Shown here: positions 1 to 3,518 of the stretch, one piece after another | How positions within the stretch are numbered: the first letter of the stretch is position 1 | How the letters are laid out: the number at the start of each line of letters is the position of its first letter | Source of the DNA: a virus | Taxonomy: Duplodnaviria > Heunggongvirae > Uroviricota > Caudoviricetes | Virus record (IMG/VR): IMGVR_UViG_2585427758_000017 | Coordinates: 1-3,518 of that record | Strand: one strand, 5' to 3' | DNA: 3,518 nt | The notes under the pieces: generated by a model | What the model was told of the DNA's origin: nothing | The model's input: the letters and a program-made list of their open reading frames with translations, nothing else | Databases searched by the model: none | Program-made: the position numbers and the translations under genes

Positions 1-408
1 ATGATCACTATTACCAAAGGGCGACTGCTGACAATCAAGCAGTGGCGCGAAACATACGGACCGGGTAGCAACGTTGTACTGCCAGCAGAAGAAGCGGAAG
101 AACTGGCACGAATTGCACTGGTATCGCTGGAAGCAGAGCCGGTGGCAAAGATTATAGCTCATTACCCATTAGGAGTTGACGTAGGCAAACAAAAGTTCGT
201 ACAGGCCATTGGAGAGCTTCCTGACTTTGGCGGATATCTATTTGCCGCCCCTCCAGCGCCGATAGTGCCGGAAGAAGCAACTCCGGAAAACGTAGAAATG
301 CTCTCTGGCTATGTTTCCACGTACAAATTAACCGATAGCGAGCGCGATATTGCTGCCGAAATATGGAACGCCTGCCGCGCCGCTATGCTTCATGGGAAAG
401 GAGAGTGA
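1..408 (+). CDS. Hypothetical prophage accessory protein (135 aa), short paralogue of the 684..1427 gene
   Basis: ORF begins with ATG at base 1 and ends TGA 406..408. N-terminus MITITK matches MTTITK of the 684 gene, and both share an ELARIAL-SLEA-PV motif and a C-terminal module (PAPxVPEEATPENVEMLSGYVSTYKLTDSERDIAAEIWNACRAAML). No upstream sequence is available, so no RBS can be seen. Family not identified. Confidence 0.6.
   Translation: MITITKGRLLTIKQWRETYGPGSNVVLPAEEAEELARIALVSLEAEPVAKIIAHYPLGVDVGKQKFVQAIGELPDFGGYLFAAPPAPIVPEEATPENVEMLSGYVSTYKLTDSERDIAAEIWNACRAAMLHGKGE
247..392 (+). repeat. Copy A of a ~146-bp near-identical direct repeat (4 mismatches; 121-bp perfect core 263..383)
   Basis: Manual alignment at an offset of 671 bp: 247..392 against 918..1063. 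Mismatches are at 252, 262, 384 and 393. It encodes the shared C-terminal module of the two paralogues. Confidence 0.9.
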
Positions 409-409
409 T

Positions 410-673
410 ATGGCAACTTTAACAAAAAAAGAACGGGCATGGTTGAACGAATTACAGGACGTTCTTGATCGCTGCCCATCACCGAAAAAAATTGGTTTTT
501 ACACCATTGGCGATAAAAGCATTTACCTGTATGACCTGCGCCGCATGGATGAAATCATGGAGGCTCTTGATAATCGTTCGTCGATGGATTGGTGTGTTGC
601 TGTTCATGATATGAATGCAGGGTTTGATGAAAAGATTTTGTTCCCCTCATCAGTTGAAAGCACTGCGGGTTAA
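410..673 (+). CDS. Hypothetical small protein (87 aa, MATLTKKERAWLNELQDVLDRC...)
   Basis: ATG at 410 is preceded by an AAAGGAGAG Shine-Dalgarno (397..405) and lies 1 nt after the upstream stop (TGA-T-ATG). The ORF-track start at 350 has no RBS and overlaps the upstream gene, so 410 is preferred. Stop TAA 671..673. No recognisable family. Confidence 0.6.
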   Translation: MATLTKKERAWLNELQDVLDRCPSPKKIGFYTIGDKSIYLYDLRRMDEIMEALDNRSSMDWCVAVHDMNAGFDEKILFPSSVESTAG

Positions 674-677
674 GGAG
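672..677 (+). promoter_or_regulatory. Shine-Dalgarno AAGGAG for the 684..1427 CDS
   Basis: AAGGAG overlapping the upstream TAA stop, 6 nt before ATG 684. Confidence 0.7.
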
Positions 678-683
678 TAACAC

Positions 684-1427
684 ATGACCACTATTACCAA
701 AGAACGTATTGAATTGTTCATTAAAAATCCGCTTGAAAACGGGCTTACCCGTGGTGAACAAATGGAACTGGCACGGATTGCGCTGGCATCGCTGGAAGCA
801 GATCCAGTTAAACGAGTTAACTCAGATCAGATGCGCCGAGTCTGCTTAGAAGCTAATCGCCATTTAGATAAATATGACGCGATGGCGAAAGAGGTAAATA
901 AGTTGCTTGGACGCATCGCCCCGCCAGCGCCGGTAGTGCCGGAAGAAGCAACTCCGGAAAACGTAGAAATGCTCTCTGGCTATGTTTCCACGTACAAATT
1001 AACCGATAGCGAGCGCGATATTGCTGCCGAAATATGGAACGCCTGCCGCGCCGCCATGCTTCAGTCCGGAAACTTTCGGGAAAACAAGAATTCGTCAACC
1101 AATAATTTTCGGGAAATCGCGGAAACGTCAACCAACTATCCGGCAATTCCTAGTGAGGTGTTGTCCGCAATCCTGAAGGTTGCCAGGATTCGTGCCGATT
1201 TCGATGATTTTGACGGTGACAGGCGAGGTATCGGTGATTGTCTGGATGAGGCTGAGCAAGAGCTTATCGTTACCATTAACAAATATGCCAGTCAGTTGGC
1301 AGCAGAACCTATAGCGCCTAATGACGTTCGAGAGCAGACAGCCATTCCACAAGTTCCGGTAACTCCGGATGGTTGGATAAGCTGTAGTGAGCGAATGCCG
1401 GACGACAGGCAGGAGGTGAATCAATGA
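684..1427 (+). CDS. Hypothetical modular prophage protein (247 aa): N-terminal module paralogous to the 1..408 gene, internal tandem repeat linker, C-terminal region ending in a DUF551-like WIS..R.P motif
   Basis: ATG 684 is preceded by an AAGGAG Shine-Dalgarno (672..677) with a 6-nt spacer. It shares the 146-bp near-identical segment with the first gene. The C-terminal residues WISCSERMPDD resemble, from memory, the start of DUF551 found in lambdoid accessory proteins; this is not verified. Confidence 0.7.
   Translation: MTTITKERIELFIKNPLENGLTRGEQMELARIALASLEADPVKRVNSDQMRRVCLEANRHLDKYDAMAKEVNKLLGRIAPPAPVVPEEATPENVEMLSGYVSTYKLTDSERDIAAEIWNACRAAMLQSGNFRENKNSSTNNFREIAETSTNYPAIPSEVLSAILKVARIRADFDDFDGDRRGIGDCLDEAEQELIVTINKYASQLAAEPIAPNDVREQTAIPQVPVTPDGWISCSERMPDDRQEVNQ
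918..1063 (+). repeat. Copy B of the ~146-bp near-identical direct repeat (perfect core 934..1054)
   Basis: Same alignment as copy A. Flanking sequence diverges immediately on both sides. Confidence 0.9.
1071..1136 (+). repeat. In-frame tandem duplication, 2 x 33 bp (25/33 identical), encoding NFRENKNSSTN / NFREIAETSTN
   Basis: 1071..1103 aligns to 1104..1136 with conserved TTTCGGGAAA and CGTCAACCAA cores. It starts 8 bp after the end of the 146-bp repeat, inside the 684..1427 CDS. Confidence 0.8.
1411..1416 (+). promoter_or_regulatory. Shine-Dalgarno AGGAGG for the candidate micropeptide
   Basis: Exact AGGAGG, 7 nt upstream of ATG 1424. It lies inside the 3' end of the upstream CDS. Confidence 0.5.
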
Positions 1428-1507
1428 GCTGGCCTGATGCAATCGTAACTCTGGGGGTGGTATTCGCAGCAGCGTTTGTTGTGTTCTCGATTTGTCGATG
1501 GGGATAA
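1424..1507 (+). CDS. Candidate 27-aa hydrophobic micropeptide (MSWPDAIVTLGVVFAAAFVVFSICRWG), putative single-pass membrane peptide
   Basis: ATG 1424 is preceded by a perfect AGGAGG (1411..1416) with a 7-nt spacer, the strongest SD in the window. The start overlaps the upstream stop as ATGA. It has a 17-residue uninterrupted hydrophobic core followed by CRWG, and its TAA stop (1505..1507) sits 4 nt before the next ATG. It is absent from the ORF track only because of its length. Confidence 0.35.
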   Translation: MSWPDAIVTLGVVFAAAFVVFSICRWG

Positions 1508-1511
1508 CCAC

Positions 1512-1754
1512 ATGTTCGCTTTGATTCAACGCGGTCAGATATACACGGACAGAGCCGGATACCCCGTGGTGATTACTCGCATCACTGAGCACTCAGTGTT
1601 CTTTCGACGGATGGACGGACGATCCGGGCGGGTACGCATTGGTGAGTTAAACTGCCTGTTCGAACATATTGACCACCAGGAGTACCGCAAAATTCTCGCG
1701 GACACTGAGCAGGAAAAGCACCTGAAAAAATTACGAGCCATAAAAAGGAAGTAA
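1512..1754 (+). CDS. Small hypothetical prophage protein (80 aa, MFALIQRGQIYTDRAGYPVVITRITEHSVFFRRMDGRSGRVRIGELN...)
   Basis: The ORF-track entry 1476..1754 starts at a TTG with no RBS. The in-frame ATG at 1512 follows a GGGGA purine tract (1499..1503) and directly follows the micropeptide stop, so it is preferred. Resembles small proteins commonly found just upstream of xis in enterobacterial prophages (possibly DUF4222-type, unverified). Confidence 0.6.
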   Translation: MFALIQRGQIYTDRAGYPVVITRITEHSVFFRRMDGRSGRVRIGELNCLFEHIDHQEYRKILADTEQEKHLKKLRAIKRK

Positions 1755-1757
1755 AGA

Positions 1758-1904
1758 ATGAATAAAGCATTTGAACGATGGGTCCACCAGCGTTACGGCA
1801 ATCGCTATGACCTGACGCGAGATGTTGACGGCTTCTACTGTCGTGAAGTTGTGAAGCGAATGTTTGAAGTGTGTTGCCACTGCCGTGGGCTGAGTGTTGT
1901 GTGA
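1758..1904 (+). CDS. Small Cys-rich hypothetical protein (48 aa, MNKAFERWVHQRYGNRYDLTRDVDGFYCREVVKRMFEVCCHCRGLSVV)
   Basis: ATG 1758 is preceded by an AAGGAAG Shine-Dalgarno (1745..1751) with a 6-nt spacer and lies 3 nt after the upstream stop. Its TGA stop (1902..1904) overlaps the xis SD. It carries a C28-x10-C39-C40-H41-C42 cluster. It is below the ORF-track length threshold. Confidence 0.45.
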   Translation: MNKAFERWVHQRYGNRYDLTRDVDGFYCREVVKRMFEVCCHCRGLSVV

Positions 1905-1912
1905 GGTAATAC

Positions 1913-2149
1913 ATGGGCAATGTGATTCAACTGGCTCCCAATGAATGGGTTTGTGAAAGCGTTCTTATCGCAATTACCGGGCTCAAACCAGGCACAATTC
2001 TTCGGGCCCGGAAAGAATGCTGGATGGTTGGAAGAGAGTATATTCACGTATCACCAGACGGTAATCCAAAGCCTTCCAGTGAATGTATGTATAACAGAAA
2101 AGCAATAGATGCCTGGGTCGCCTCAATGAAAAACAAACAACCCAGGTGA
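1913..2149 (+). CDS. xis: Excisionase / recombination directionality factor (78 aa)
   Basis: Small basic protein immediately upstream of and co-oriented with the integrase. The sequence MGNVIQLAPNEWVCESVLIAITGLKPGTILRARKECWMVGREYIHVSPDGNPKPSS matches, from memory, the excisionase-like family of E. coli Rac/e14-type prophages. GAGGT SD 1903..1907. Confidence 0.8.
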   Translation: MGNVIQLAPNEWVCESVLIAITGLKPGTILRARKECWMVGREYIHVSPDGNPKPSSECMYNRKAIDAWVASMKNKQPR

Positions 2150-2194
2150 TTTAATATCATGAAATATGTAAGCTCGTATCGCTCTTGGGCGTCT

Positions 2195-2199
2195 GGAGG
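2195..2199 (+). promoter_or_regulatory. Shine-Dalgarno GGAGG for int
   Basis: GGAGG 5 nt upstream of ATG 2205. Confidence 0.7.
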
Positions 2200-2204
2200 T
2201 ATCG

Positions 2205-3518
2205 ATGGATAAAGTCAAATATCCAACAGGCGTCGAAAACCACGGCGGCACATTACGCATCTGGTTTAATTTTAAAGGTAAACGTGTCAGGGAAAATCTT
2301 GGTGTCCCTGACACTGCCAAGAACAGGAAGATCGCCGGGGAACTGCGGACATCAGTATGTTTTGCCATCCGCACAGGAAGCTTTGATTATGCTGCACAGT
2401 TCCCTGACTCCCCCAACCTTCAGGCTTTTGGGGTAAGTAAAAAAGAAATTACGGTGAAGGAACTTGAAGAAAAGTGGCTGGATCTGAAACGAATGGAAAT
2501 CTCTGCAAATGCATTCAATCGCTATGAATCCGTTGCAAGAACGATGGTTCCGAAAATTGGAGGCAGTAGACTGGTGTCATCGGTAACCAAAGAGGAATTG
2601 CTGTATATCAGGAAAGATTTGCTTACCGGGTATCAGAATTCAACGAAAAACAAAGCAGCAGCAAAAGGACGGAGCGTCGTTACTGTAAATTATTACATGA
2701 CGACAATCGCTGGAATGTTTCAGTTTGCTGCAGATCACGGTTACTTAGAAGCAAATCCCTTCCAGGGAATTAAGCCTCTTAAAAGAGCCAGGGCAGAGCC
2801 AGATCCGCTAACTCGTGACGAATTTATTCGCCTGATAGATGCTTGCCGACATCAGCAGACGAAAAACCTGTGGTCATTGGCTGTGTACACAGGAATGCGT
2901 CACGGTGAACTGGTCTCCCTGGCCTGGGAAGATATCGATCTGAAGGCAGGAACAATTACCATCAGGCGCAATTATACGAAACTTGGTGAGTTCACTCTAC
3001 CGAAAACTGAAGCAAGCACAAACAGGGTTGTGCACCTTATCCAGCCCGCTATCAGTGTCCTGAAAAATCAGGCTGAAATGACAAGACTGGGTAAGCAGTA
3101 CAACATCAAGGTGCAACTACGTGAATATGGACGTTCAGTGAACCATGAATGTACTTTCGTGTTTAACCCTCAAGTGGTTAGAAAAAGCGAACAGGTAGGT
3201 TTTGTCTACAAAGTCGATTCTGTAGGTGACTCATGGGAAACAGCCATTAAGCGTGCAGGGATCAGGCATCGAAAGGCATACCAGTCACGACACACTTATG
3301 CGTGCTGGTCATTATCTGCCGGAGCAAACCCAAGCTTCATTGCCAGCCAGATGGGCCATGCAAGTGCCCAGATGGTATTCAATGTATACGGAGCATGGAT
3401 GACTGACAGCAATGCAGAACAGATCGCAATGCTGAATCAGAAGCTGACAGATTATGTCCCAATGATGCCCCATAGTCACCAAAGTGACACCAGAGGCTTA
3501 TTAAAATCAGTAAGTTAA
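2205..3518 (+). CDS. int: Tyrosine recombinase, lambdoid phage integrase with N-terminal arm-binding domain (437 aa)
   Basis: GGAGG SD 2195..2199 with a 5-nt spacer. The N-terminus (HGGTLRIWFNFKGKRVRENLG) is arm-binding-like. Catalytic residues can be placed: Arg I R232 (2898..2900, TGMRHGE), Lys K267 (3003..3005, LPKTEA), Arg II R362 (3288..3290, SRHTYACW), His H385 (MGHAS) and nucleophile Tyr Y395 (3387..3389, NVYGAW). Resembles Rac IntR-type integrases from memory. Confidence 0.95.
   Translation: MDKVKYPTGVENHGGTLRIWFNFKGKRVRENLGVPDTAKNRKIAGELRTSVCFAIRTGSFDYAAQFPDSPNLQAFGVSKKEITVKELEEKWLDLKRMEISANAFNRYESVARTMVPKIGGSRLVSSVTKEELLYIRKDLLTGYQNSTKNKAAAKGRSVVTVNYYMTTIAGMFQFAADHGYLEANPFQGIKPLKRARAEPDPLTRDEFIRLIDACRHQQTKNLWSLAVYTGMRHGELVSLAWEDIDLKAGTITIRRNYTKLGEFTLPKTEASTNRVVHLIQPAISVLKNQAEMTRLGKQYNIKVQLREYGRSVNHECTFVFNPQVVRKSEQVGFVYKVDSVGDSWETAIKRAGIRHRKAYQSRHTYACWSLSAGANPSFIASQMGHASAQMVFNVYGAWMTDSNAEQIAMLNQKLTDYVPMMPHSHQSDTRGLLKSVS

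Follow-up and report, generated by a model that had tools for sequence, protein, structure and literature searches.

The window analysed here is the whole 3,518-nucleotide stretch of the virus record IMGVR_UViG_2585427758_000017 (IMG/VR, positions 1 to 3,518), in which two genes (gene 1 and gene 3) on either side of an 87-aa gene share a near-identical direct repeat. With a probability of roughly 80%, this repeat represents two copies of one allele of a portable module of ~49 codons that belongs to a mosaic family of accessory genes, the Ea22/Eaa/DUF551 family. The locus is the early-left (exo-xis) accessory region of a lambdoid E. coli prophage, upstream of xis-int. Genes of this family have a block anatomy, and the module occurs among them in combinatorial contexts, as distinct haplotypes and in both tandem and single-copy states.

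Alignment confirms the direct repeat that had been described in the earlier note, with its start-to-start distance of 671 bp and its identical stretch of 121 bp (263-383). Window positions 246-392 and 917-1063 agree at 144 of 147 positions, and the original count of 142/146 becomes 143/146 in the 247-392 frame. The mismatches are located at 252 (T/G, Pro/Pro, synonymous), 262 (A/G, Ile/Val) and 384 (T/C, Ala/Ala, synonymous). The longest exact direct repeat in shuffled versions of the window has a mean length of 11 bp and a maximum of 15 bp (200 shuffles), which excludes a chance origin. The first base of both copies is at codon position 3, so the copies are read in the same phase in genes 1 and 3 and a crossover between them stays in frame. 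As in phage mosaic segments in the sense of PMC3945230, identity above 90% is found between otherwise dissimilar sequences, here 144/147 with unalignable flanks. Flanking homology at a lower level, which also belongs to that definition, was not found: nothing rises above background directly outside 246-392 and 917-1063. The conserved joints sit within the ends of the module, rather than outside it as flanking homology.

Genes 1 and 3 are mosaics and not drifted paralogues. Apart from the module, their only homologous stretches are 1-19 with 684-702 (18/19) and 100-143 with 765-808 (39/44). Between these stretches, alignment scores do not rise meaningfully above those of shuffled sequence: z is 0.14 in each of the two DNA intervals, and 0.5 and 1.1 for the corresponding peptides. 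What had been taken for N-terminal halves that drifted apart are therefore non-homologous alternative blocks, and the ~90% identity given previously for 100-140 and 771-811 was read in the wrong register (15/41); the true partner of the first stretch is 765-805 (37/41), at an offset of 665 and not 671. A tandem duplication in situ followed by divergence was also considered and rejected: blocks A and C, which precede the module in genes 1 and 3, respectively, cannot be aligned, and each is found alone elsewhere at ~100% identity.

Gene 1 matches the profiles PHROG 60, 5117 and 660 and has no Pfam match. The exact gene-1 protein is listed in 338 collection blocks and was found on 188 contigs. 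Gene 3 matches Pfam DUF551 (PF04448) at profile positions 1-16 of 68, with 23.8 bits against a cut-off of 22. The 68 positions of DUF551 extend from W..s.ERMP to HWMPLPEPP, and most relatives of gene 3 (291-308 aa) have the complete domain; gene 3 is thus a predicted truncated DUF551 allele that stops after its first 16 positions. Neither gene bears the Ead_Ea22 signature (PF13935) in Pfam, where DUF551 is the only match of gene 3, or in NCBIfam, and what they share with the Ead/Ea22 family is only the short MxTITK N-terminus and PHROG 60. PF13935-bearing genes are found as upstream neighbours in related loci. Searches of Pfam, NCBIfam, PADLOC and PDB sequences with gene 1, the 87-aa gene and gene 3 gave nothing beyond the truncated DUF551, and the PADLOC defence models matched none of the six small proteins of the window.

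The module is found in many other genes. Our sample of 82 copies comprises 71 IMG/VR stretches containing an exact 60-mer of the core, loci encoding the exact gene-1 protein and two E. coli chromosomes. In 15 of the 82 copies both flanks are of the gene-1 type (L1-R1) and in 25 both are of the gene-3 type (L2-R2), while a gene-1-type left flank is joined to a gene-3-type right flank (L1-R2) in 24; the opposite combination (L2-R1) occurs once, and the remaining 17 copies have other left or right contexts. Altogether at least five left and at least three right contexts are present in nearly all combinations. In a search of 1.84 billion cluster representatives the module occurs at 94% identity or more in at least 20 clusters that are mutually less than 50% identical, at positions ranging from residue 29 to residue 224. 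Alignment A1 reveals that every block is shuffled: the N-terminal and middle blocks each come in three variants, an insertion is optional, the module core between PAPVVPEE and WNACRAAML has alternative forms, and a hypervariable DUF551 body takes many unalignable forms between the conserved WISCSERMP and HWMPLPEPP. Full-length DUF551 thereby has the same layout as the module, with a variable core between two joints. When a block is compared with its counterparts in other loci, identity is 96-100% in every case. This implies that the module, contrary to what had been claimed, is not more conserved than the remainder of the genes; it is simply the piece that genes 1 and 3 share. The number of homologous places in E. 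coli genomes with any match has a median of 2 and reaches 9. Three large repeat proteins with a weak match to the module (P0153, P0163 and P0166) look like unrelated immunoglobulin-like repeats and were dropped.

As read from its sequence, the module is built as joint, core, joint. It is probably a Pro-rich linker followed by a small helical unit, and an AlphaFold2 model of gene 3, with a mean predicted local distance difference test score (pLDDT) of 43, suggests coil over the linker and then two helices in the module. For the right joint, G-WNACRAAML, we performed a degenerate scan for WNACRAAM(L/F) with wobble positions left free, which yielded more than 120 IMG/VR stretches. Among these were 87 different cores of 30 residues, which fall into 46 clusters of less than 60% identity. 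Aligned at the Trp codon across the 46 core types (loci L098-L213), the island GGC TGG AAC GCC TGC CGC GCC GCC ATG CT has a wobble conservation of 80-91%, in a sample of related sequences in which the amino acids of the joint are fixed by the scan. Only a few codons away, both before and after the island, conservation is down to ~35%. GCC accounts for 80-87% of the Ala codons in the island and CGC for 91% of the Arg codons, compared to 24% and 25%, respectively, in the 60 codons that precede it in these sequences. The left joint (CCAGCGCCGGTAGTGCCGGA-GAA, encoding PAPVVPEE) is conserved to a similar degree and lies 22-41 codons upstream of the right joint, so that cores differ in length.

Blocks reassort at these joints. 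Across the right joint, 14 core clusters are followed by at least two downstream types and 13 downstream clusters are preceded by at least two cores, and for two core pairs all four core/downstream combinations exist. Homology to the window begins at position 364, the start of the right joint, in three loci (L086, L095 and L096). At the 44-bp joint further upstream, recombinants are found in both directions, A[1-137] joined to C[82-233] in L001, L057 and L033 and the reciprocal in L047. The island is about as long as the shortest segments that recombinases are reported to pair in PMC3945230 (Red-beta, 23-27 bp; RecA, 31-34 bp), a paper in which Rad52-like recombinases were shown to make mosaics at short, diverged homology. 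The conservation of synonymous sites in joints that lie within genes is the one feature that deserves follow-up.

The tandem arrangement is not confined to the window. Positions 1-1888 recur as one contiguous piece, 99.84% identical, in prophages integrated at mlrA with a 428-aa integrase (L088, L091-L094 and L097), and of the 24 contigs read in which the exact gene 3 is encoded, about 17 carry the tandem. The whole window arrangement is absent from the 5,426 complete E. coli genomes of RefSeq that were searched. A variant of it, in which a different gene precedes the first copy, occurs in E. coli B19695. Other loci share the xis-int of the window. Two of them (L089 and L090) have a 207-aa Ead_Ea22 gene that lacks the module before the 87-aa gene, and six (L031, L045, L062, L065, L073 and L074) have a single A-module-D' gene, where D' is an alternative form of block D, and no 87-aa gene. 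The single-gene architecture is also found in phage PhiR5_1.

In E. coli, short direct repeats give rise to deletions by RecA-dependent crossover, slippage or single-strand annealing. The window likewise has direct repeats (121 bp perfect, 671 bp apart) and an in-frame product whose exact protein exists. Because the copies are in the same phase, recombination between them removes the 87-aa gene and creates an in-frame chimera, as previously proposed. An exact look-up in a collection of 15 billion proteins identified the predicted 251-aa chimera with Ile88, which is expected for a crossover in the 121-bp core, on two NCBI contigs (HFF6139676.1); the Val88 version is not in that collection. Four other 251-aa relatives of the chimera, of which three differ at 1-2 residues and the fourth at 5, carry Ile88 or Val88. 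Related single-gene forms occur in 70 of the 5,426 complete genomes (at least 80% coverage), and an intact A-module-D-DUF551 gene is found on E. coli plasmids of ~98 kb, one 728-nt BLAST piece of which is 98.8% identical to the predicted chimera. Single-module variants that join the N-terminus of gene 1 to the C-terminus of gene 3 therefore exist, as the earlier note anticipated. The reciprocal 131-aa protein (C-module-HGKGE) was found on 21 contigs by exact look-up. On one of these 21 contigs, an E. coli O104:H4 plasmid (L214, NZ_CP022085.2, positions 3014-3948), the 87-aa gene occurs twice, 671 bp apart, and brackets a 131-aa C-module-HGKGE gene that is the exact reciprocal recombinant predicted from the window. 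The 671-bp unit thus changes copy number in nature.

In our account of how the locus originated, the enzymes involved, the succession of events and a possible selective benefit are inferred. The family is built from short conserved joints (MxTITK, ELARIALASLEA, PAPVVPEE, WNACRAAML and WISCSERMP) that alternate with exchangeable, non-homologous blocks. Homologous recombination at the joints, among co-resident prophages and infecting phages, would reassort the blocks, and the enzymes responsible may be host RecA or phage Red/RecT-type proteins, which need only about 23-34 bp of identity. Genes 1 and 3 would then be two assemblies in which one module allele is present in both by coincidence, and the tandem would have formed when recombination set an A-module-87aa block beside an 87aa-C-module-D block. 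The near-identity of the two copies would be a population-wide property of the module allele and not the result of conversion between the window copies. As a by-product, the tandem would be a substrate for in-frame deletion of 671 bp. Some points weigh against this account. The recombination events are deduced from sequence comparison, and the loci were ascertained via exact matches within the module or a joint. Wobble conservation in the joints could reflect a function at the DNA or RNA level, or shared descent among non-independent sequences. The edges of the module are sharp, and the junctions could stem from illegitimate recombination plus selection rather than from homologous recombination at the joints. 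The AlphaFold2 model of gene 3, made from an alignment of 26 rows, is unreliable.

The haplotypes of the module bear on two other explanations of the repeat. The earlier note had put forward recent gene conversion within the genome, by which the C-terminal module of paralogues that drifted in situ was homogenised, and the 98% identity of the copies between dissimilar flanks fits that idea, as does the G at position 1050 of copy 2, which agrees with copy 1 where the commonest C-M-D' haplotype (M, module) has A. The haplotype of copy 1, T,A,G,T at positions 252/262/379/384, is common to 13 A-module-87aa copies, the majority of which lie in loci where the module has no second copy close by. That of copy 2, G,G,G,C, is also present in single-copy loci, which have no partner copy to be converted by. 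The three differences between the window copies are those that separate the single-copy A-module-B and C-module-D populations. Since each copy has the usual single-copy haplotype of its own context, recent conversion between them is not needed to explain their similarity. The flanks, moreover, are non-homologous and not drifted, and at least 20 unrelated protein contexts contain the module at the same level of identity. Thus, of the two processes that had been preferred to uniform divergence, module exchange is supported by the combinatorial contexts, and recent conversion appears quite improbable. According to another explanation the tandem is ancestral, the widespread A-module-D genes are its repeat-mediated deletion products and the repeat is a working deletion switch for the 87-aa gene. 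The exact 251-aa product with Ile88 and its close relatives, a stretch of identity (121 bp) that exceeds the minimal pairing segments cited in PMC3945230 and the periodic duplication of the 87-aa gene in L214, which implies changes in unit number, would all agree with such a switch. Against it, every abundant chimera examined has G,G at 252/262: all 24 A-M-R2 copies of the viral and genome sample, all 11 metagenome matches, the PhiR5_1 gene and the plasmid gene. The abundant chimeras also contain the D' block, except the plasmid gene and the short L078 fragment. All 11 matches in a metagenome scan for the A-module-D junction belong to the common class with haplotype G,G,A,C and block D'; the window haplotype is absent from them. 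The abundant chimeras are therefore not products of a core crossover in the window tandem, and in this respect most natural single-copy genes differ from what repeat-mediated deletion of the window tandem would give. In different strains and backbones the tandem has the same sequence throughout (100% identity), suggesting youth, and the common occurrence of intact A-M-D-DUF551 genes on ~95-kb plasmids fits the single gene as the older form. The existence of four other 251-aa variants with Ile88 or Val88 also indicates that A-module-D may be older. A deletion switch of this kind is thus unlikely.

Three further explanations concern the conserved nucleotides, the repeats and the joints. An embedded DNA or RNA element, such as a promoter, a small RNA, a structured RNA or a protein-binding site, might account for the ~30 nt of the right joint, whose wobble positions are far more conserved than codon usage predicts. 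We regard it as very improbable, as an Rfam scan of the window at E<=1 gave nothing, sequences resembling promoters or terminators are no more frequent than expected by chance and absent from the module, the folding of module RNA has z values of -0.7, -0.9 and +0.3 (both strands), and the core is freely replaced while the joints stay and blocks reassort across them. Conserved ends around a hypervariable middle also bear a superficial likeness to cassette systems, and a dedicated programmed variation system (shufflon, invertase, cassette switch or diversity-generating retroelement) might act on the repeats. The repeats are direct, however, with no inverted partner in the window, the only recombinases encoded there are the phage integrase and excisionase with no reverse transcriptase or invertase, and the variants are non-homologous blocks and not point-mutated copies; the probability of such a system is close to negligible. 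A different proposal, possible though doubtful, is that PAPVVPEE-[22-41 variable codons]-WNACRAAML constitutes a dedicated exchange cassette within genes. Its synonymous-conserved ends of ~25-30 nt would act as Red/RecT homology arms, its hypervariable and presumably target-binding core would be swapped between prophage accessory proteins from a stock of dozens of alleles, and tandems like that of the window would be intermediates that grow and shrink in 671-bp steps. If true, evolvability would be kept by selection and would not be a passive by-product of relatedness. We retain the portable module of a mosaic family, reassorted by ordinary recombination, as the preferred reading of the repeat. 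The features of the locus are listed in Table 1.

Table 1 Features of the window, with positions in the 3,518-nucleotide stretch
Feature	Position	Strand	Description
Gene 1	1..408	+	135 aa; block A, module, 5-codon tail HGKGE; short Ea22/Eaa-like mosaic family member
N-terminal joint MxTITK	1..19	+	18/19 match to 684-702
44-bp joint	100..143	+	ELARIALxSLEAxPV; 39/44 match to 765-808; crossover point in other loci
Module copy 1	246..392	+	Encodes PPAPIVPEEATPENVEMLSGYVSTYKLTDSERDIAAEIWNACRAAML; haplotype T,A,G,T at 252/262/379/384
Right joint of module	362..391	+	G-WNACRAAML; ~30-nt island with wobble conservation; second copy 1033-1062
87-aa gene	410..673	+	PHROG 1714
Gene 3	684..1427	+	247 aa; block C, module, block D; predicted to end 16 residues into DUF551 (WISCSERMPDDRQEVNQ*)
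Module copy 2	917..1063	+	Haplotype G,G,G,C
Crossover interval	1355..1555	+	Tandem block to yecE-type xis-int backbone; from identity to L088 / L062
DUF4222 gene	1512..1754	+	Domain match
Excisionase (DUF1233)	1913..2149	+	Domain and PHROG matches
Tyrosine integrase	2205..3518	+	437 aa; prophage end adjoins yecE in E. coli

The position of the locus and its direction, which is the same as that of int, place it in the exo-xis region. All open reading frames (ORFs) of the window are on the + strand and point toward the DUF4222 gene, a 48-aa gene, xis (DUF1233) and int. In phage PhiR5_1 the homologous gene comes after gam, bet, exo, orf60a, orf61 and ea22, and in E. coli relatives adjoin yecE or mlrA. 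Annotations of relatives are Ea22, Eaa or DUF551 protein. Window positions 1-1555 are identical to an mlrA-type prophage (L088) and positions 1355-3518 to one of the yecE type (L062), which implies that the window arose by recent recombination between the two types, the crossover lying in the interval common to both matches. The 87-aa gene is preceded by a Shine-Dalgarno sequence, AAGGAG at 398-403, with one base between the stop codon of gene 1 and its own start codon (TGAtATG); in other loci, variable upstream genes precede it.

Just after module copy 2, at 1071-1135, lies an imperfect tandem repeat of 33 bp (78% identity; NFRENKNSSTN / NFREIAETSTN), and relatives seem to differ in how many units they have; an additional D[70-285]-like stretch is present in L062. 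A hydrophobic ORF of 27 aa (MSWPDAIVTLGVVFAAAFVVFSICRWG) at 1424-1507 overlaps the stop codon of gene 3 (ATGA), has no family match and may encode a small membrane peptide. In species-representative genomes the module is present only in metagenome-assembled genomes labelled Segatella copri and Collinsella sp. (L083 and L084, contigs of 1.8 and 3.0 kb), most likely mis-binned fragments of E. coli prophages. A degenerate scan of the same genomes for the C-terminal helix of the module returned only two mis-binned contigs from gut metagenomes and added no taxonomic breadth. Many genes of the mosaic family, for instance in L001, L002, L081 and L085-L087, are annotated by the Prokaryotic Genome Annotation Pipeline as pseudogenes that are 'incomplete' or 'partial in the middle of a contig', and in L081 the supposedly broken region is a single intact ORF of 295 aa. 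The mosaic structure thus appears to mislead homology-based annotation.

The closest known system is that of the mosaic ea22 and eaa genes in the exo-xis region of lambda and Shiga toxin (Stx) phages. PMC10834534 describes a mosaic organisation for ea22 in Stx phages and treats DUF551 as a portable domain. The genes of this system occupy the same place between the recombination genes and xis-int and have the same short conserved N-terminus, block-wise mosaic structure and portable C-terminal DUF551. Unlike them, genes 1 and 3 lack a PF13935 match, and the PAPVVPEE...WNACRAAML module is absent from the ea22 blocks quoted from that paper. The window also differs in having two family members that share one module allele, in tandem around the unrelated 87-aa gene. 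A search for the motif in the literature library used here found no paper on the PAPVVPEE...WNACRAAML module. An older model of phage mosaicism, cited in PMC3029335, invokes boundary (linker) sequences. As in that model, short conserved islands (~19-45 nt here) flank exchangeable segments, with all combinations of flanks. Classical boundary sequences lie between genes, whereas the joints described here are within coding sequence, at linker and domain edges, and are conserved at synonymous sites.

The locus reveals no new mechanism or protein function. It adds a well-resolved case to what is known of lambdoid mosaicism and is a product of ordinary recombination. For annotation it serves as a warning, as genes of this region are often called pseudogenes or fragments even where, as in L081, an intact reading frame is present. 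At the level of segments inside a gene, the ~30-nt wobble-conserved ends support the long-standing 'linker sequence' model. With a 147-bp piece that is found in nearly every combination of neighbours, the locus quantifies how the accessory genes of lambdoid prophages are rebuilt from parts.

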